Shown here: positions 1,451 to 12,990 of the stretch, piece by piece | How the letters are laid out: each line of letters begins with the position of its first letter | How positions within the stretch are numbered: position 1 is the stretch's first letter | DNA from: Escherichia coli | GTDB lineage: Bacteria > Pseudomonadota > Gammaproteobacteria > Enterobacterales > Enterobacteriaceae | Assembly: GCF_003790525.1 (NCBI RefSeq) | Contig: NZ_CP033635.1 | Direction: 5' to 3' (one strand) | DNA length: 64,000 nucleotides | Made by a program: the position numbers and the translations under genes | Notes under the pieces: model-generated | Told to the model about the DNA's origin: nothing | The model's input: the letters and a program-made list of their open reading frames with translations, nothing else | Database searches by the model: none

Positions 1451-2824
1451 ATGAGTTCCGTCATTGAAACTACTCAATCAACTTCATCCGATTCCTTACC
1501 TTTAATACAGCGGATTAGCTACGGCTCACTGGATGTTGCCGGTAATCTGCTCTACTGTTTTGGCTCTACCTACATTCTTTATTTCTACACCGACGTAGCA
1601 GGGATTAGTCTGGCGGTTGCAGGCATAATCCTACTGCTGGCGCGCATTGTAGACGGTATTGATGCGCCAGTGTGGGGAATCATTATCGATAAAACCCATT
1701 CGCGTTATGGAAAATGCCGTCCATGGTTTTTATGGTTACCATTACCTTTTGCTGTATTTAGTGCGCTTTCTTTCTGGTCACCCGATATCAGCATGACAGG
1801 GAAAGCTGTTTATGCAGCAATATCGTACATGTTAGCCAGCATTCTGTTCACTGGGTTGAATACACCATTAAGCGCTATATTACCGCTGATGACGCTGTCA
1901 CCAAAGGAACGCCTGGTATTAAACTCATATCGCATGACTGGTGGGCAAATTGGCGTACTATTAATGAATGCGACAGCATTGCCATTGGTCGCTTTCCTTG
2001 GTAATGGTAACGATAAAGCAGGCTTTATATATACTGCCATAGTCTTTGCCGTAATATCCTGTGCCTTAACGTTGTTTGCCTTTAAAAATATTCGCGAACT
2101 GGATACCGATAAAATACAGCAAGAACCACGACTGCCGATGAAAAAGAGTTTTTCGGCAATGAAAGGGAACTGGCCGTGGCTCCTGATGGTAGTGGCGAAC
2201 CTTATCTTCTGGATTGCCCTACAGCAGCGCAACACTACTATTGTTTACTATTTAACCTACAATCTGGATCGCAAAGATCTGGTCCCGCTGGTTAACAGCC
2301 TCGCCACCATTCAGATCCTGTTTATCATTGCCATTCCGTTCTTCAGTCGCTATCTCACCAAAACCTGGATTTGGATTACCGGGCTGCTGGTTGCGATGTT
2401 AGGCGGGGGCCTCATGTGGCTGGCTGCCGACAGCATCCCTTTGATGATCGCCGCCTGGGTACTCGCCAATATCGGCAGCGGTATCGCCTGTTCTATGCCT
2501 TTCGCGATGCTCGGTTTCGCCGTTGACTTTGGTCGCTGGAAAACCGGCATTAAAGCTACCGGCATTCTGATCGCCTTCGGCAGCACCTTCTGCATCAAGA
2601 TGGGCAGTGGTATCGGTACAGCTTTCGCTGCCTTTATTATGGACAGCTTTGGTTATATCCCCAACCAACAACAGACGGCTGCGGGGTTGGAAGGTATCAG
2701 CCTGGCATTTATCTGGGTCCCTGCGCTGCTCTTTGCTCTCGCGGCTGTACCACTGCTCTTCTTTCGCCAGTATGAAGCGATGGAAGGTCGTATCCAACAC
2801 GATCTGCAAGCCCACAATCGTTGA
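1451..2824 (+). CDS. GPH-family (glycoside-pentoside-hexuronide:cation symporter, MelB/YicJ-like) MFS transporter, 457 aa
   Basis: ATG with upstream GGAGAG; highly hydrophobic multi-span protein; GPH-type motif DGIDAPVWGIIIDKTHSRYGKCRPW in loop 2-3; not present at this position in K-12. Confidence 0.85.
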   Translation: MSSVIETTQSTSSDSLPLIQRISYGSLDVAGNLLYCFGSTYILYFYTDVAGISLAVAGIILLLARIVDGIDAPVWGIIIDKTHSRYGKCRPWFLWLPLPFAVFSALSFWSPDISMTGKAVYAAISYMLASILFTGLNTPLSAILPLMTLSPKERLVLNSYRMTGGQIGVLLMNATALPLVAFLGNGNDKAGFIYTAIVFAVISCALTLFAFKNIRELDTDKIQQEPRLPMKKSFSAMKGNWPWLLMVVANLIFWIALQQRNTTIVYYLTYNLDRKDLVPLVNSLATIQILFIIAIPFFSRYLTKTWIWITGLLVAMLGGGLMWLAADSIPLMIAAWVLANIGSGIACSMPFAMLGFAVDFGRWKTGIKATGILIAFGSTFCIKMGSGIGTAFAAFIMDSFGYIPNQQQTAAGLEGISLAFIWVPALLFALAAVPLLFFRQYEAMEGRIQHDLQAHNR

Positions 2825-2863: not shown

Positions 2864-4903
2864 ATGTCGTTTATTAAGCAAGATCCCCACCGTCTGGTCT
2901 GGCAACAAGACGATCGTTATCTCTGGATTGAAGCCTGGGGCGAAAACAGCTTACGCGTGCGAAGCGGCCGCCATTTACCGGTAATGCGCAATGAAAACTG
3001 GGCGTTAACTCAGGATCCTGGCGATGCTGTCGCTCATATCACCTGGGATGAAAAACAGGCAACGCTGAGAAATGGTAAAATCACTGCCATCGTAAATCTT
3101 CAGGGCCAGCTCTCTTTCTGGCGTAATGATGATAAATGCCTGCTGCAAGAGTTCTGGCGTCAACGTGGCGAAATTGGTGAAGATGAGTCAGCACACGGCC
3201 AATATGTGAGCGCTCTTAATCTACAGGCCCGTGAATTCAAGCCTATTCCTGGCGGGAAATTTACGATTAAGGCACGATTTGAAGCCAACGATGGCGAGAA
3301 ACTCTTTGGCATGGGTCAGTATCAGCAACCAAACCTGGATTTAAAAGGTTGCATGCTGGAGCTGGCACAACGTAACTCGCAGGCTTCTGTTCCCTTCCTG
3401 CTATCAAATCAGGGTTATGGTTTTCTGTGGAATAACCCAGCAATTGGCCGCGTCACCTTCGCGCAAAACGGTACGGAATGGGTAGCAGAAGTCAGTGAAC
3501 AACTGGACTACTGGATCACTGCGGGCGATACTCCGGCTGAGATCAGTGAAGCCTATGCACGAGTAACCGGTACGCCACCGATGATGCCTGATTACGCAAT
3601 GGGGTTCTGGCAATGCAAGCTTCGCTATCGTAATCAACAAGAATTGTTAGAAGTCGCACGCGGCTACAAGCAACGCAATCTTCCGATCTCGGTGATTGTC
3701 ATCGATTTCTTCCATTGGCCGAATCAGGGTGACTGGATGTTCGATCTGCGTGACTGGCCCGATCCCGATGCGATGATCGCCGAATTAAAAGAAATGGGTA
3801 TCGAACTGATGGTTTCATTCTGGCCTACCGTAGATAACCGTACCGAGAGTTATCGGGAGATGAAAGAAAACGGCTGGCTAGTCCACACCGAGCGTGGTTT
3901 GCCTATCAATATGGATTTCCTTGGCAACACCACGTTCTTTGATGCGACACATCCTGGCGCACGGGAATATGTCTGGAACAAAGCCAAACGCAATTATTAC
4001 GATAAAGGCGTGAAACTGTTCTGGCTGGATGAAGCCGAGCCAGAGTTCGGTGTTTACGATTATGACAACTATCGTTACTACGCAGGGCCAGTGCTGGAAG
4101 TCGGTAATATCTATCCGCGTATGTACGCCAAAACGTTCTTCGATGGCATGCAGGCAGCCGGAGAAAAGCAGGTGATCAATTTGCTACGCTGCGCCTGGGC
4201 CGGTAGTCAGAAATATGGTGCCCTGGTGTGGTCAGGCGATATCCACTCCTCCTTCCGTTCTCTGCGCAATCAGTTTGCTGCGGGGCTGAACATGGGAATT
4301 GCCGGGATCCCGTGGTGGACGACGGATATTGGCGGTTTCCACGGTGGCAACATACATGATCCAAAATTTCATGAACTGCTTATTCGCTGGTTCCAGTGGG
4401 GGGTATTCAGCCCAGTAATGCGTTTACATGGCAACCGCGACCCGCAAGTTTTGCCTGAACAACCCTATCGTGATGGCATCGCACAATGTCCGACTGGCGC
4501 GCCGAATGAAGTCTGGAGCTATGGTGAAGAAACCGGTGAAATTCTCACTTCCTGCCTGCAGTTGCGTGAGAAGCTGAAACCTTATATCAGTAAAATTATG
4601 GCTGAGACGCACGAGAAGAACAGCCCGGTAATGCGCACGATGTTCTTTGAGTTTCCAGACCAGGCAGAAAGCTGGAATATTTATGATCAGTACTGCTTTG
4701 GCCCGGACCTTCTCGTTGCCCCTGTAATGCACGAAGGTACACGTTCACGTGATGTCTGGTTGCCTGCCGGAGAGACATGGATCGATTTTTATACCCATGA
4801 ACACTACGCGGGTGGGCAAAAGCTTCATCATTGCGCGCCGCTGCACCAGATACCGGTATTCATTCGTGAGAAAGGGAAATATCGCCAGTTATTACCCGTT
4901 TAA
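2864..4903 (+). CDS. Glycoside hydrolase family 31 alpha-glycosidase (YicI/YihQ-like), ~679 aa
   Basis: ORF track begins at TTG 2843, but ATG 2864 has a GGGAGG Shine-Dalgarno 7 nt upstream; GH31 motifs FWLDEAEPE (candidate nucleophile Asp) and WSGDIHS (candidate acid/base Asp); 19 bp after the transporter stop, so likely one operon. Confidence 0.85.
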   Translation: MSFIKQDPHRLVWQQDDRYLWIEAWGENSLRVRSGRHLPVMRNENWALTQDPGDAVAHITWDEKQATLRNGKITAIVNLQGQLSFWRNDDKCLLQEFWRQRGEIGEDESAHGQYVSALNLQAREFKPIPGGKFTIKARFEANDGEKLFGMGQYQQPNLDLKGCMLELAQRNSQASVPFLLSNQGYGFLWNNPAIGRVTFAQNGTEWVAEVSEQLDYWITAGDTPAEISEAYARVTGTPPMMPDYAMGFWQCKLRYRNQQELLEVARGYKQRNLPISVIVIDFFHWPNQGDWMFDLRDWPDPDAMIAELKEMGIELMVSFWPTVDNRTESYREMKENGWLVHTERGLPINMDFLGNTTFFDATHPGAREYVWNKAKRNYYDKGVKLFWLDEAEPEFGVYDYDNYRYYAGPVLEVGNIYPRMYAKTFFDGMQAAGEKQVINLLRCAWAGSQKYGALVWSGDIHSSFRSLRNQFAAGLNMGIAGIPWWTTDIGGFHGGNIHDPKFHELLIRWFQWGVFSPVMRLHGNRDPQVLPEQPYRDGIAQCPTGAPNEVWSYGEETGEILTSCLQLREKLKPYISKIMAETHEKNSPVMRTMFFEFPDQAESWNIYDQYCFGPDLLVAPVMHEGTRSRDVWLPAGETWIDFYTHEHYAGGQKLHHCAPLHQIPVFIREKGKYRQLLPV

Positions 4904-7343: not shown

Positions 7344-8588
7344 CTATAGCTGTTTATTCCAGAGATGCTTGAAAATATCTAATGTGGAGACAACATTGGC
7401 AGGCGACATTCGGTTTAATGAGGATAGAAAGGGATGAGACTCCAGGAAGTTGATAAAACGAGTCGCGCTTGCTAACGTCGAATACCGCATTTCATTTGCT
7501 TTCTTGTTTCCTGTAAGGTTACAAACAGCCATTGAATAATCACGGGCGGAAAATGTACGCCAAACATTATTTCTCACGCCACCACTCAAAAACAACCGCG
7601 GCGGCGTATCATAATGAGTCGTTTTCTCGCCGCGTTCTTTCACAAATGAAATATGGCACCGGCCTTGATGAATATGCTGTAAATTAGCCATCAGACAACC
7701 ACCTAATATAAAGCACTCGTGATCAAGGTAGTGTTGAATATTTATAGAATATGCTTCAGTCAGTGCTCTAACCAGTTCAAAATGGCGATACGCCGGAAGA
7801 ACCGGTTTCACCAACATCCCCGGATCGTTTTGATGTAATATCGCCCGACCATAATCAATATCAAATAAGGTATCACGCCGCATAGTAAGTAACTCCTTGC
7901 GTTGTACGTGATGCGCCAGTGTACCTGGAGACAAACGCTCTTCATAACTTGATGCATATTGATAATGCGACTCTACCGCTGATGGAGAATAATTTGTTGA
8001 AATAGCGACGACTCTACCGCTTTGTTCTTCTGCGGTAACAAGGCTATAAAGATAGTTATTACTACCGTTAAACTTTACGCGAAAAGCGCGGGTAGATAGA
8101 GAAATATCAGAAGCAGAAGAGTATTGGTAACTTTCTTTATAGTTTACTTCCCGGGCTAGTTTCATCAACTCACGGTTAAGCCCTGTGCTATTAAGAAGTA
8201 ATAATTTACGGATATCTGCAAGTGAAGCGCCTTGATCAATCATCAATGCTAAATGTGTTCTTCGCGGCGTTGTATTTACATGATCCAGAGTGATAAAAGT
8301 TCTGGAACAATGATGACAATACATTCTCCTCTGCCCCTGAGCTGAATAGCCATACTTTTTCAGAGATGTGCTTCCGCAAGCTGAACATTGTGGAACCAAC
8401 CCTCTCCATGAATGATTAACACGATTACGATAAATATTAAGAGATCGTTCAGATATCACAGGAAACAAGTAACCGCATTCCCGACATAAAATATTTTTTC
8501 CTTGTGCAATATAATCCTGGCTATTCAACAACCCCAGGTTTTTGCATCCTGGTGTTTTGCAACAATCAACATTTACGTTGGTAAACAT
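7344..8588 (-). CDS. Uncharacterised Cys-rich protein with two predicted CxxC...CxxC zinc-ribbon modules (InsA-like), ~414 aa
   Basis: ORF track starts at 8624, but the ATG at 8588 (MFTNVNV) has AGGGAG 6 nt upstream; motifs CKTPGC...CRECG and CSACGSTSLKKYGYSAQGQRRMYCHHCSRTF; C-terminal ~300 aa with no motif I recognise. Confidence 0.7.
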   Translation of the reverse strand: MFTNVNVDCCKTPGCKNLGLLNSQDYIAQGKNILCRECGYLFPVISERSLNIYRNRVNHSWRGLVPQCSACGSTSLKKYGYSAQGQRRMYCHHCSRTFITLDHVNTTPRRTHLALMIDQGASLADIRKLLLLNSTGLNRELMKLAREVNYKESYQYSSASDISLSTRAFRVKFNGSNNYLYSLVTAEEQSGRVVAISTNYSPSAVESHYQYASSYEERLSPGTLAHHVQRKELLTMRRDTLFDIDYGRAILHQNDPGMLVKPVLPAYRHFELVRALTEAYSINIQHYLDHECFILGGCLMANLQHIHQGRCHISFVKERGEKTTHYDTPPRLFLSGGVRNNVWRTFSARDYSMAVCNLTGNKKANEMRYSTLASATRFINFLESHPFLSSLNRMSPANVVSTLDIFKHLWNKQL

Positions 8589-8628
8589 ATTCACTCCCTG
8601 CGAATACCCGGATATTATCGTCATATGT

Positions 8629-8669
8629 CAAAGAAAAGAACCTGACTCAATGTGTAACATTGAATCAGG
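8629..8669 (-). terminator. Candidate intrinsic terminator/attenuator between the sulfatase gene and the Cys-rich gene
   Basis: 12-bp inverted repeat cctgactcaatg(tgtaa)cattgaatcagg; on the minus-strand RNA the stem is complete with one G-U pair and is followed by UUCUUUUCUUU. Confidence 0.45.
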
Positions 8670-8717
8670 CGGGCATGGCCCTGAAAGGCATACATTACAT
8701 TTATTATGGTTATCAGA

Positions 8718-10211
8718 TTAGCCCCAGGTTACCGCTTCCGGTTTATCACCTCTGGCTTTCATTAATGAATCATTATCAATATCGGCTTTATACTTTAAGA
8801 ACTTACCATACATTTGTTTTTCAATGTCTGGATTTTTACCTATCTGATTAATGGTCTCAAAACGATCGGTTTTGAGGTTGTATAGGTACTTTGGCTTATT
8901 GTTACGATCGATGATCATTTTCCAGTCACCATCACGTATCGCCCATTCGTCGGTTGGATCATCCTGGAATGGCATGTCAATTCCGAAGATTAATGGCTTT
9001 TCACGTTTTAGCGCTTTGTTCTCAAGGACAGGAACCAACGATTCGCCATCAAAAGTCCGGTCCGTCGGTAATTTGAAGTTCATCATTTTCGCCAGCGTAG
9101 GCATCCAGTCCAGACCATAAACAGGCGTATCTGAAACCATTCCCTTTGGAAGATGCTTTCCGTATTTAATAATCGCCGGAACACGGATGCCACCTTCCCA
9201 GAGATTATCCTTGCGACCACGTAATCCATCAGTTTCCCCTGCCAAATTCAGTTCATAAACTTTGCGCGCTTCACGCGTTACTGGTCCGTTATCACTGGTA
9301 AAAATAACGATGGTGTTATCTTCTTCACCCATCGCTTTGATTTTATCCAGTACTTTTCCAACCTGAGCATCCAGATAACTGATGTTGGCATAATATTCTC
9401 CTGTACCACGCCAGGGTTTATCCGCCCAGTCGCCATAAAATAAATCAGGATGCTGCTTCTGATAGTCGCTCATATATTGTGAGTACATGTCGAGGTATTT
9501 TTTGGGCGAAGCCAGGGGACTGTGCACTTCGGTAAAAGCGACATAAAGGAAGAAAGGCTTACTGTCCTTTTTGTTATCCAACCAGTTGACGACTTCCGAA
9601 CTGACATACTCACCACTCATTTTATCGGAACGTGGTGTGGGTTGCCCGTTACGCAACCAGCCCGTTGGATAGACCATGCCAAAACGGGGACGCTCCTTCG
9701 CATTATCCAGAGTAGCGTCGGTAACAAAACCCGCCGTATTAACCAGTGAGTAATCAAAGCCCATATCTTTTGCCTGCGGCTGATCGGTGCGATCGCCGCC
9801 TGCATTCAGATGCAGCTTACCCATCATGGCCGTGTCGTACCCTTGCGCTTTGAGTAGATTAGCAATCGTGAGTTCATTACGCCCTAATGCCACATCTTTT
9901 CCCGTTGGGATCCATGAGCGTATGCCGGTACGAAATGGCATCCGCCCTGTTAATAGTCCCGCCCGTGAAGGAGAACTTAAGGGGGCAGGTGCATAATAGT
10001 CGGTAAATTTGACGCCTTCCTGGGCAAGCCTGTCTATATTGGGCGTTTTAACGATCTGATGTCCATATGTTGCCAAATCACCATAGCCTAAATCATCCGC
10101 CATAATGATGACTAAATTGGGTTGTTTAGTTTCGGCGGCTACGGCTGGATTAAAAGCATTCCCTGTGCAAACTGCAAGGCCGATCAAACTGGCCATTAAT
10201 GTTTTCTGCAT
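8718..10211 (-). CDS. Secreted sulfatase (arylsulfatase family), Ser-type active-site motif SSPSR, ~497 aa
   Basis: Sulfatase signature PNLVIIMADDLGYGDL, active-site block PLSSPSRAGLLTGR (Ser at the formylglycine position), second signature GYDTAMMGKLH; N-terminal signal peptide MQKTLMASLIGLAVCTGNA; start chosen at ATG 10211 with AGGGA RBS (track ORF extends to 10247). Confidence 0.85.
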   Translation of the reverse strand: MQKTLMASLIGLAVCTGNAFNPAVAAETKQPNLVIIMADDLGYGDLATYGHQIVKTPNIDRLAQEGVKFTDYYAPAPLSSPSRAGLLTGRMPFRTGIRSWIPTGKDVALGRNELTIANLLKAQGYDTAMMGKLHLNAGGDRTDQPQAKDMGFDYSLVNTAGFVTDATLDNAKERPRFGMVYPTGWLRNGQPTPRSDKMSGEYVSSEVVNWLDNKKDSKPFFLYVAFTEVHSPLASPKKYLDMYSQYMSDYQKQHPDLFYGDWADKPWRGTGEYYANISYLDAQVGKVLDKIKAMGEEDNTIVIFTSDNGPVTREARKVYELNLAGETDGLRGRKDNLWEGGIRVPAIIKYGKHLPKGMVSDTPVYGLDWMPTLAKMMNFKLPTDRTFDGESLVPVLENKALKREKPLIFGIDMPFQDDPTDEWAIRDGDWKMIIDRNNKPKYLYNLKTDRFETINQIGKNPDIEKQMYGKFLKYKADIDNDSLMKARGDKPEAVTWG

Positions 10212-10230
10212 AATTATTCCCTGATGAAAA

Positions 10231-10992
10231 TTAGAAATCATAACCAAGCATATAAATCATTTGATCGCCAAAACCATCGTAGCCCAACTTATTATCGAAA
10301 TAACGCCACGTCACACTGGCTTTCCAGCGAGGATAGAACTTCCAGGCCACTGTTAAACCGCCATTTAGCCCATTCCGACCAAATTGTTGTTCCGCATAGG
10401 CATCATTTCTGTCCAGTTCTATTTCATTCCAGTTAGATAAAACAAATTTTTCGTCAAATAACGTAAAAGGTAATACTGCTGTCCAGCCAACAACATAACC
10501 ATTCCAGCCATTTGTTTGTCCATATTTGGCTGAGACGTAGTCTCCAGATTGATTATGTAATCCAATATACGGTTTAAAAAACCCCCATGAACCATTCCAG
10601 CCGAGGTAGCCCAAACCATAAAACATATCAAGATCGTCACCCCATGAGTTATCCCATTGACCATAGATCTTGCCAAAGAAAGTCATATTGGAGTCAAAGA
10701 GTCTGACATGTGTCATAGCAGAAACGGTATGATTACGCCCCGCTACGGCATGGTTAAGCACATTGCTTTCATAAAATGAGTAAAACTCGGCTTCTTTAAA
10801 ATTCACACCAAAGTCTGCAGTCACTTTCCATACTTCACCACGATGAGTGTTAACGAAGCCACTATTCCAGTCAGCATAACCTGCATTTATTGAGCCAAAG
10901 GAACCTTTATATTCTAATGAAGAATATGCAGGAAGGTGATAGAAAATCGTTGTCAGGGCACACGCAATAAGAAGCCGTCTTTTGGCAGACAT
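10231..10992 (-). CDS. Tsx/OmpK-like outer-membrane channel protein, 253 aa
   Basis: Signal peptide MSAKRRLLIACALTTIFYHLPAYS, Trp/Tyr/Gly-rich beta-barrel-like sequence, C-terminal Phe; WDNSWGDDLD block resembles Tsx; GGAGAG RBS; ends 19 bp upstream of the sulfatase start. Confidence 0.7.
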   Translation of the reverse strand: MSAKRRLLIACALTTIFYHLPAYSSLEYKGSFGSINAGYADWNSGFVNTHRGEVWKVTADFGVNFKEAEFYSFYESNVLNHAVAGRNHTVSAMTHVRLFDSNMTFFGKIYGQWDNSWGDDLDMFYGLGYLGWNGSWGFFKPYIGLHNQSGDYVSAKYGQTNGWNGYVVGWTAVLPFTLFDEKFVLSNWNEIELDRNDAYAEQQFGRNGLNGGLTVAWKFYPRWKASVTWRYFDNKLGYDGFGDQMIYMLGYDF

Positions 10993-11499
10993 ATAATATG
11001 CTCTCCATTCATTTTTTTTATGGTTCCATAGAAATCAATACATCAGATAATTCATTTTGATTAAGAACGACTCAGAAAGTATATTTAAAGGTGAATGGCA
11101 AAGCGTGATGGAGATCGCAGATTACTTTTACCCCCGGGTGTGGAGGTATCGTGTTTCAAAAAGTGTGTCGATTTTAAATATCACTCATTGATTTATAAAC
11201 ATTTTTCCTCACAAAAAGAAAATTCAATTCTGTACAAGAATATTTTGTATCTTCTATTACTTTCTCCAGTAATAACTCACCATTCAGGCATAACTTAAAC
11301 CTCTTGTTCATAATCTCAACTTTTGTAAATGAAAACGCACATAAGAGTTAAAATAAACAATGTACTAAAGATTGATTACGCAAAAATGCGAGGCGTCTTC
11401 AGGATTAGAATCGATAAAACAGAATGGGTTAAAGAGAGCGATATAATAGCGGCGGGTGCTTGAGGCTGTCTGTCTCAGGCATTAGCTGAACGGCAGATA

Positions 11500-11560
11500 G
11501 AGAAAAGCCCCGAGTGATATTTTACCATCAACCCGAGGCCCCCTATATGCAGAACACATG
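11500..11560 (-). ncRNA. sokC: sokC antisense RNA of the hokC/mokC type I toxin-antitoxin locus (approximate position)
   Basis: Placed by analogy with K-12, where sokC is antisense to the mokC start; not independently verified from the sequence. Confidence 0.35.
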
Positions 11561-11756
11561 TAGAGTGCCTCTTACTGACCGTAAGGTCAAGGAGAAGAGA
11601 GCAATGAAGCAGCATAAGGCGATGATTGTCGCCCTGATCGTCATCTGTATCACCGCCGTAGTGGCGGCGCTGGTAACGAGAAAAGACCTCTGTGAGGTTC
11701 ACATCCGAACTGGCCAGACGGAGGTTGCTGTTTTCACGGCTTACGAATCCGAGTAA
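11547..11756 (+). CDS. mokC: mokC, overlapping reading frame that couples hokC translation (69 aa)
   Basis: In-frame upstream ATG giving MQNTCRVPLTDRKVKEKRA fused to the HokC sequence. Confidence 0.6.
   Translation: MQNTCRVPLTDRKVKEKRAMKQHKAMIVALIVICITAVVAALVTRKDLCEVHIRTGQTEVAVFTAYESE
11604..11756 (+). CDS. hokC: Hok/Gef-family small membrane toxin HokC (50 aa)
   Basis: Translation MKQHKAMIVALIVICITAVVAALVTRKDLCEVHIRTGQTEVAVFTAYESE; 3' hairpin ggcgggg(agtgat)ccccgcc at 11764-11783. Confidence 0.85.
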   Translation: MKQHKAMIVALIVICITAVVAALVTRKDLCEVHIRTGQTEVAVFTAYESE

Positions 11757-11859: not shown

Positions 11860-12990
11860 TTAGCGAGTCAGGTCGTCAAAAAACTTCTTCACACCATCAA
11901 AGAAGCTCTTTGAACGCGGGCTGTTGTGCTCGCCGGTTGGGCCACCGAAGCTTTCCTGCAGCTCTTGCAGCAGCTGTTTCTGCTTCTCGTTCAGACCTAC
12001 CGGTGTTTCGACGACAACGCGGCACAGCAAGTCCCCTTGCGCACCGCCGCGAACAGACTTGACGCCTTTACCACGCATACGGAACAGCTTACCGGTCTGG
12101 GTTTCGCCAGGCACTTTCAGTTTGACGCGACCATCAAGGGTCGGTACTTCGATTTCGCCACCCAGCGCTGCCATCGCGAAGTTGATCGGGACTTCGCAAT
12201 ACAGGTTGTTACCTTCACGCTCGAAAATCGGGTGCTGTTTAACCTGAACCTGAACGTACAGATCGCCTGCCGGTGCGCCATGCTCGCCCGCTTCACCTTC
12301 GCCCGCAAGACGGATGCGGTCTCCAGTGTCCACCCCTGCCGGGATTTTAACGGACAGCGTTTTGCTGCGCTCAACACGACCATGACCATGACATTTGTTG
12401 CACGGATCTTTGATCAGCGTACCGCGGCCCTGACAGTGTGGACAGGTCTGCTGTACAGCGAAGAAGCCCTGGCGCATCTGCACCTGACCAGAACCATGAC
12501 AGGTCGGACAGGTCTGCGGCTGTGTACCTGGTTTTGCACCGCTACCGTGGCAAACGTCACACTCTTCCAGAGTCGGAATGCGGATCTCTTTGGTCACGCC
12601 ACGTACAGCTTCTTCGAGGGTGAGCTCCATGTTATAGCGTAAATCAGCACCGCGCGCCGCACGTTGACGACCACGTCCGCCGCCAAAAATATCGCCGAAA
12701 ACGTCACCAAAAATATCGCTGAAGTCTGCGCCGCCGCCAAAACCGCCGCCGCCCATGCCGCCTTGCTCAAACGCAGCATGACCATACTGATCGTATGCCG
12801 CACGTTTTTGCGAGTCGGTCAGAACTTCATAAGCTTCCTTGATCTCTTTAAATTTCGCCTCGGCCTCTTTGTCACCCTGGTTACGGTCCGGGTGGTATTT
12901 CATGGCCAGGCGTTTGTAGGCCTTTTTGATTTCACGCTCTTCCGCTGTTTTGGAAACGCCTAAAATCTCGTAATAATCTTGCTTAGCCAT
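11860..12990 (-). CDS. dnaJ: Chaperone DnaJ (Hsp40)
   Basis: Translation from [47 protein letters not shown]...; 376 aa; Gly-rich and CxxCxGxG zinc-finger repeats. Confidence 0.96.

Follow-up and report, generated by a model that had tools for sequence, protein, structure and literature searches.

We describe here a gene for an outer membrane channel of the OmpK/Tsx family and the three-gene island that it heads in a 64,000-nucleotide stretch of Escherichia coli DNA (contig NZ_CP033635.1 of assembly GCF_003790525.1), hereafter the window. The gene order in the window is dnaK-dnaJ-mokC, then the OmpK-like channel, a periplasmic sulfatase and a Zn-ribbon protein, followed by nhaA-nhaR. An earlier sequence-only reading of this DNA had placed the channel first in the cluster, and indeed its stop codon lies 19 nucleotides (nt) ahead of the sulfatase start codon. 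No terminator was found on the minus strand within this spacer by a consensus scan, and co-transcription of the two genes is implied by the shortness of the spacer, its Shine-Dalgarno sequence and the lack of a terminator. Similarly short spacing is repeated in homologous loci. The features of the island are collected in Table 1.

Table 1. Positions in the window of the island genes and of the features discussed in the text
Feature	Position	Strand	Remarks
OmpK/Tsx-family channel gene, sulfatase-linked clade	10231..10992	-	253 codons; mature protein 229 amino acids, 26.4 kDa, 12 predicted β-strands
Signal-peptide codons 1-24 (MSAKRRLLIACALTTIFYHLPAYS)	10921..10992	-	predicted cleavage after AYS
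Spacer, channel stop to sulfatase ATG (10211)	10212..10230	-	19 nt, Shine-Dalgarno AGGGA
Periplasmic sulfatase, 497 amino acids, Sec signal peptide	8718..10211	-	Pfam Sulfatase, E = 4e-59
Ser79 codon (LSSPSR), formylglycine-precursor position	9975..9977	-	tblastn motif table
Terminator-like hairpin, 14 pairs then a T-run	8640..8670	-	consensus scan; inside the maturase-gene gap, 3' of the sulfatase
Cassette-conserved Zn-ribbon protein, 414 amino acids	7344..8588	-	longest open reading frame starts at 8624
Degenerate CRP-like box TGCGATCTCCATCACG	11104..11119	-	phylogenetic footprint; 8/10 consensus positions

Family and fold of the channel protein

The channel protein is 100% identical to WP_001274824.1, annotated in RefSeq as "outer membrane protein OmpK" (ECSMS35_RS00085 of E. 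coli SMS-3-5). Its N-terminus, MSAKRRLLIACALTTIFYHLPAYS followed by SLEYKG, reads as a signal peptide, and the AlphaFold2 (AF2) model places a helix at residues 3-18, ahead of strand 1. The C-terminus is MLGYDF, ending in Phe. The mature protein has an isoelectric point of 5.1, and Trp, Tyr, Phe and Gly make up 34% of its residues; the initial description of the open reading frame as a Trp/Tyr/Gly-rich protein of ~25 kDa with a C-terminal Phe was accurate.

The sole Pfam match of the channel is PF03502 (Channel_Tsx), which is present in all channel homologues. This profile hidden Markov model (HMM) search had been set beforehand as a check by the sequence-only reading, and the score of 51.7 bits (E = 1.3e-13) is above the gathering score of 27.2, with an alignment that covers residues 104-253 only and in this respect counts against a Tsx likeness over the full length. 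The AF2 model, calculated from 24 homologues, has a predicted local distance difference test score (pLDDT) of 91.4 and shows 12 strands, so that the outer membrane β-barrel proposed earlier is reproduced as a 12-stranded Tsx-like barrel; neither a non-barrel fold nor a best homology to a general porin turned up. The general trimeric porins of the OmpF/OmpC type, with a 16-stranded barrel and a porin-family match, do not accommodate the protein. It is 28-35% identical to OmpK of Vibrio and Enterovibrio (261-263 amino acids, against 253 here), the source of the RefSeq name, compared with 14% to E. coli Tsx (PDB 1TLW/1TLY), than which it is ~40 residues shorter. A neighbour-joining (NJ) tree places it among the OmpK-like branches and has Tsx as a long outgroup. 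The channel is a member of the Tsx family, OmpK branch, an assignment to OmpK that was already in the RefSeq annotation.

At this distance, pairwise similarity to E. coli Tsx is not significant by either BLASTP or hhalign, a phmmer search of the channel against PDB sequences gave no match even at E ≤ 10, and no PHROG match was found. The NCBIfam model PRK11528 matches with 120 bits, below its cut-off of 282. We suspected PRK11528 to be YdiY and dropped this claim, since K-12 YdiY looks unrelated by eye (no formal comparison). The 12-stranded KdgM/NanC channels, which are likewise encoded in catabolic clusters and take up acidic sugars, belong to another sequence family, Pfam finding only Channel_Tsx here, and their substrates are sugar acids rather than sulfate esters.

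One sequence feature had to be reinterpreted. The block QWDNSWGDDLDMF, residues 112-124 of the channel, contains the motif WDNSWGDDLD, which had been called Tsx-like. In both the MAFFT and the HMM alignments this motif pairs with Tsx residues ~132-146 (YDMGRNKDGRQSTW), whereas the look-alike DWGSDLGDD of Tsx occupies residues 212-219, ~80 residues beyond the paired segment. The two motifs are thus not positionally homologous.

Gene neighbourhoods of the channel and its relatives

A profile search of 1.84 billion representatives identified 132 channel relatives at E ≤ 1e-3. Metagenomes and a genome set of 100,044 species supplied the loci, neighbouring genes were placed by tblastn, and the neighbourhood counts cover the relatives with recovered flanks. 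All relatives of at least 49% identity adjoin an orthologous sulfatase. They come from Escherichia (4 species), Citrobacter, Kosakonia, Kluyvera, Phytobacter, Atlantibacter, Franconibacter (including "Enterobacter" pulveris), Buttiauxella, Salmonella, Klebsiella spallanzanii and Vibrio, 11 named genera altogether, and two metagenomic lineages with only 35-37% identity to the channel likewise adjoin the orthologous sulfatase. Across genera, the channel mostly lies 19-25 nt upstream of the sulfatase on the same strand. These observations support a conserved, not accidental, link between channel and sulfatase. The suggestion that the channel may be dedicated to a sulfated solute is supported by this conserved gene order. 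Our literature searches did not find a description of the clade-wide tie to a sulfatase/maturase/sulfotransferase cassette, or of the contrast with nucleoside-linked branches.

Most of the sulfatase-linked loci also hold an anaerobic sulfatase maturase and the transposase-derived Zn-ribbon protein, the commonest order being channel, sulfatase, radical-SAM/SPASM enzyme, Zn-ribbon protein. A match to TIGR03942 (495 bits, cut-off 349) identifies the radical-SAM enzyme as the maturase. Six or more lineages also have an arylsulfate sulfotransferase (PF05935) next to the cassette, at one end or at both. No inner-membrane transporter was seen between the cassette genes in the recovered loci.

A second arrangement is found in Salmonella, Citrobacter braakii and K. 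spallanzanii, where the channel (55-57% identical) is divergently oriented from the sulfatase and is followed after 98 nt by a signal-peptide-bearing gene of the metallophosphatase/5'-nucleotidase family. The trio of channel, sulfatase and 5'-nucleotidase-family gene is found again in a metagenomic lineage of 35% identity (L051), and loci of this type are bracketed by two arylsulfate sulfotransferase genes (L007, L025, L027 and L030 in Salmonella/Citrobacter; L051 in the metagenome). The 5'-nucleotidase-family protein resembles UshA and the sulfate-releasing SoxB, in both cases with a score under the cut-off (157 bits for SoxB). By the LT2 numbering, STM0036 probably falls inside this Salmonella locus. 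In a Salmonella table from chromatin immunoprecipitation on microarrays (ChIP-chip), STM0036 has an SsrB peak and is regulated 4-fold (PMC2837388).

The neighbouring branches, 34-38% identical to the channel and found in Klebsiella, Citrobacter and Photobacterium, also have a small channel gene within a catabolic cluster, but one of a different kind. In a branch of 244-residue proteins, all 12 loci with recovered flanks carry a nucleoside hydrolase and a NupC transporter, and none has a sulfatase within 10 kb of the channel; one Klebsiella branch adjoins xapA/xapB-like genes. Their neighbours are thus nucleoside enzymes and inner-membrane nucleoside transporters, while the channel here is surrounded by sulfatase, maturase and sulfotransferase genes, among which no inner-membrane transporter was seen. 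Tsx itself stands alone in the CytR/DeoR nucleoside regulon, whereas the present channel sits in a sulfatase operon. Vibrio OmpK, of the same sub-branch, also stands alone, amid housekeeping genes, and in V. cholerae ompK is repressed by CytR along with nucleoside-scavenging genes (PMC4581735).

Unlike Vibrio OmpK, the channel clade is always sulfatase-linked and has diagnostic residues of its own. These comprise 25 positions, among them K56 (26/26 clade members; Tyr, Leu or Phe elsewhere in the family), R97 (26/26) and N77, where 46 of the 51 other family members have Glu. Some of the diagnostic substitutions fall on polar strand faces.

Upstream region and proposed function

A scan for sigma-70 promoters returned nothing convincing upstream of the channel, with fewer hits than in shuffled sequence. 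The cross-genus alignment (matching regions of L013, L014, L016, L019, L023, L024, L031 and L040) instead revealed a CRP-like palindrome, TGTGA-N6/8-TCACA, 80-145 bp upstream of the channel throughout the clade. The palindrome is perfect in Franconibacter and Buttiauxella, matches 9/10 positions in three lineages, and is N8-spaced in Kosakonia and Phytobacter. In the window its centre lies ~41 bp upstream of the start site inferred from a -10 candidate, TATACT (11078-11083), a position that would fit class II CRP-dependent control. Another ~35 bp upstream, at ~11135-11160 on the minus strand, lies a second conserved box, which is of the AACAACATTTTCTGACAC type and could be an operator of the Zn-ribbon protein.

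The Zn-ribbon protein itself has two Zn-ribbons and a helix-turn-helix (HTH) followed by a transposase-like domain. It is annotated as an IS1/IS1595 Zn-binding protein, yet it is single-copy and syntenic in ~30 cassette loci; in the transposase-like core no Asp is invariant and just one acidic position is, and no terminal inverted repeats were found at the gene. Although its predicted model is of low confidence (pLDDT 61), the protein looks like a domesticated transposase and is possibly a regulator of the module.

We estimate a probability of about 0.6 that the channel is a monomeric 12-stranded pore of the OmpK branch that is co-transcribed with the sulfatase and would serve as the entry pore of a sulfatase module for small sulfated solutes. 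The channel probably admits small sulfated compounds, because its clade always adjoins a sulfatase while the related branches adjoin nucleoside genes. Small sulfated organic solutes would diffuse inward through the pore into the periplasm and be hydrolyzed there by the sulfatase. In fuller cassettes the arylsulfate sulfotransferase may also act on them, as may the 5'-nucleotidase-family enzyme in two lineages. The cassette enzymes other than the cytoplasmic maturase have a signal peptide or belong to a periplasmic family; because the chemistry would be periplasmic and no inner-membrane transporter is seen between the cassette genes, the outer membrane pore appears to be the only transport component. 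We favour aryl sulfates as substrates, because genes for the phenol-sulfate sulfotransferase recur in the cassette, and the likeliest solutes would be planar, anionic phenolic (aryl) sulfate esters of about nucleoside size, which could plausibly pass a retuned Tsx-type slot. Expression would probably be catabolite-controlled through the CRP-like box, and the Zn-ribbon/HTH protein may add specific control. In this picture the family, the fold, the layout of the operon, the conservation of gene order and the purifying selection are established by the data, and the inward flux, the class of substrate and the regulation are inferred. The charge of the lumen is estimated at +0.8 for the clade, compared with -4.4 for the nucleoside-linked branches and -4.0 for Vibrio OmpK, i.e. 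~5 charge units more positive, which is suggestive only, as the values come from a crude strand register set by hydrophobicity rather than from coordinates.

Two explanations that keep the channel closer to nucleosides have to be considered against this entry pore for sulfated solutes. The first is that it is an ordinary nucleoside channel like Tsx or OmpK and that its adjacency to the sulfatase is functionally meaningless. Membership of the Tsx family, the two neighbour branches tied to nucleoside hydrolase/NupC or xapAB, the place of V. cholerae ompK in the CytR regulon and the resemblance of the CRP-like box to tsx control would all be expected of such a channel. We nevertheless consider it unlikely, since the sulfatase is adjacent in every recovered locus down to 35% identity, in 11 named genera and in two orientations, the 19-25 nt spacing implies a single transcript, the clade has its own set of substitutions, some on polar strand faces, and the cassette of E. 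coli-type loci has no nucleoside gene.

The second explanation retains a nucleoside-shaped pore and assumes a sulfated nucleoside or nucleotide as substrate, either a nucleoside sulfate or a compound resembling adenosine 5'-phosphosulfate or its 3'-phosphorylated form (APS/PAPS), from which the sulfatase and the 5'-nucleotidase-family enzyme would strip sulfate and phosphate in the periplasm. The 5'-nucleotidase-family gene close to the channel in the Salmonella/Citrobacter/Klebsiella type, the reappearance of the trio at 35% identity, the resemblance of the enzyme to SoxB (if below cut-off) and the two nucleoside-linked neighbouring branches speak for this idea. Against it stand the E. coli-type cassette and many others, which are without a 5'-nucleotidase-family gene, the recurring sulfotransferase, which belongs to the phenol-sulfate family PF05935, and the lack of an inner-membrane nucleoside transporter in the cassette; moreover, Tsx passes nucleosides but is not known to pass nucleotides. 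On balance it seems improbable.

Several points also weigh against the channel as an entry pore for sulfated solutes. The specificity of the pore is deduced from neighbouring genes only, and our literature searches found no functional study of the channel or the cassette. Two neighbouring branches are nucleoside-linked and two sulfatase-linked lineages have a 5'-nucleotidase-family gene beside the channel, which is why a nucleoside- or nucleotide-like substrate retains some probability. The NJ tree in which the sulfatase-linked loci make up a single clade is without support values. In addition to its basic substitutions, the clade has lost basic residues (R87 to Asn, K250 to Gly). The CRP-like box of Escherichia is degenerate, at 8/10. 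Finally, the E. coli cassette is reduced, with no maturase, no sulfotransferase and Ser at the formylglycine position, and for this reason its activity in E. coli is uncertain.

Except in Bacteroides, work on bacterial sulfatases rarely considers passage through the outer membrane, and channels of the Tsx family are regarded as specific for nucleosides. If the proposed function is correct, the substrate range of the family extends to sulfated metabolites, and a compact, testable module would be available in Salmonella and Citrobacter and in E. coli strains, CFT073 and SMS-3-5 among them. Substrates of the module may include host sulfoconjugates, for example phenyl, cresyl and indoxyl sulfates, or sulfated catecholamines and steroids. 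Known sulfate-ester systems offer a comparison. Klebsiella atsBA encodes a Ser-type arylsulfatase and the maturase AtsB, and the ats/sft locus of Pseudomonas putida includes the TonB-dependent receptor SftP. Both share a periplasmic sulfatase and a radical-SAM maturase with the present cassette, and the Pseudomonas locus also has a dedicated outer membrane transporter for sulfate esters. They differ in having either no known channel or a TonB-dependent receptor with an ATP-binding cassette (ABC) importer, whereas the cassette here would combine a passive pore of the Tsx family with no inner-membrane importer.

The Escherichia sulfatase and the history of the island

The sulfatase of the window matches PDB 3ED4 ("putative arylsulfatase from E. 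coli") with 1111 bits and is that same protein; 3ED4 has been described as an unpublished structural-genomics entry (PMC9063841). The cassette supplies a context for this orphan crystal structure. A subfamily could not be assigned from homology, as steryl-sulfatase, GalNAc-6-sulfatases, carrageenan sulfatases and arylsulfatase A all follow 3ED4 at ~165-187 bits.

All Escherichia copies (E. coli, E. albertii and E. whittamii), as well as 3ED4, have LSSPSR at the formylglycine site, and every other genus examined has LCSPSR. The Escherichia loci are also without the maturase gene, leaving a gap at 8625-8717 in the window, while the other genera mostly combine LCSPSR with the TIGR03942 maturase. 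Ser-type sulfatases are said, in work by Benjdia et al. from 2007, to require an AtsB-type maturase. The ratio of non-synonymous to synonymous substitution rates (dN/dS) of the sulfatase is 0.031 between E. coli alleles, and a Ser-type sulfatase that is under selection without its cognate maturase presents a concrete biochemical puzzle. The state with Ser and no maturase is common to the three Escherichia species and is therefore old and maintained.

Of 5,426 complete E. coli genomes, 1,273 carry the channel gene and 1,271 have the three-gene island at ≥80% length. It is found in SMS-3-5 (phylogroup F) and CFT073 (phylogroup B2) and is absent from K-12, W and O157:H7. Strain variability consists of the presence or absence of the whole island rather than of the channel alone. 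The E. coli alleles fall into two families, an SMS-3-5 type and a CFT073/SK1144 type, whose channels differ by 10% in nucleotides and only 4.7% in protein. The channel dN/dS between them is 0.045, and 0.026 for the mature part at a synonymous divergence (dS) of ~0.6. Among the 12 amino acid differences, five are in the signal peptide, and the seven in the 229 residues of the mature protein are scattered across strands and turns with no loop concentration. The channel gene is real and under constraint. The Zn-ribbon protein has a dN/dS of 0.097. The dS is 0.54-0.61 for channel and sulfatase and 0.54-0.99 over the whole island (7344-10992), against 0.107 for the adjacent dnaJ (11860-12990), so that the island alleles either greatly predate the core genome around them or came in by recombination.

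These data bear on whether the E. coli island is a decaying remnant whose channel has no current role. The missing maturase gene and LSSPSR in all Escherichia copies, the degenerate CRP-like box and the lack of the island from ~77% of complete E. coli genomes, K-12, W and O157:H7 included, could be read in this way. However, the three genes are intact and under strong purifying selection (dN/dS 0.045, 0.031 and 0.097, at a dS of 0.54-0.99), the Ser/no-maturase state is old, as noted above, and the apparent frameshift alleles show several one-base homopolymer deletions in each locus, a usual pattern for sequencing errors. We judge decay to be improbable. These apparent frameshift alleles appear in the protein database as clusters of truncated, 190-residue channels, in many of which a run of six T is reduced to five in TGGGGCTTTTTTAAA (10568-10590 in the window). 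The contigs concerned (L055-L060) have 3-7 single-base homopolymer indels over channel, spacer and sulfatase, with one-base deletions also in T6, C5 and A6 runs elsewhere in the locus. Because there are several such indels per contig, the 190-residue alleles are most likely sequencing errors rather than products of phase variation or recurrent pseudogenization. A further peculiarity of the database is that the 90%-identity protein cluster holding the channel has 7,513 members and is represented by the 497-residue sulfatase. The two proteins were presumably merged through read-through or fused gene calls, and the exact channel match was therefore hidden in the homology search.

The sequence-only reading had suggested that a role as phage and colicin receptor could explain why the locus varies between strains, and one may ask whether the main significance of the channel is that of a receptor, with such pressure driving its patchy distribution. 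Tsx is the receptor of phage T6 and colicin K, and Vibrio OmpK is that of vibriophage KVP40. The allele comparison lends this idea no support. With dN/dS at 0.03-0.05 there is no diversifying signal, strands and turns alike carry the few differences of the mature protein, a phase-variable tract could not be substantiated, and losses of the channel always include the sulfatase and Zn-ribbon genes, the whole island being present or absent as one. A receptor-driven history is thus highly improbable. The pattern is one of ancient allelic divergence under purifying selection combined with whole-island loss, not of receptor-driven diversification.

Taken together with the entry-pore function favoured above, a more far-reaching scenario can be drawn, which we consider possible but rather doubtful. 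The channel clade would have been re-specialized from nucleosides to anionic sulfate esters and would act as the gate of a self-contained periplasmic module (pore, sulfatase, maturase, arylsulfate sulfotransferase and a domesticated-transposase regulator), which enterobacteria might use in the gut on phenolic sulfates that come from the host or the diet. The Escherichia sulfatase would have changed from Cys to Ser and lost its own maturase, and would then rely on AslB, YdeM or YidF, or on another catalytic mode.

Other features of the surrounding DNA were also noted. A gene for a transporter of the major facilitator superfamily (MFS; 1451-2824, plus strand) and one for a glycoside hydrolase of family 31 (GH31; 2864-4903, plus strand) lie between nhaR and rpsT. 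The pair is annotated in SMS-3-5 and absent at that position in CFT073, so that the window has a second insert that varies between strains. Directly next to the island is the mokC/hokC type I toxin locus (11514-11756, plus strand). The dnaJ-mokC junction is a rearrangement hot spot: it carries IS186 in K-12, where the island is absent, and IS421 in strain LZSFT34. The CFT073 gene c0020 corresponds to dnaJ.

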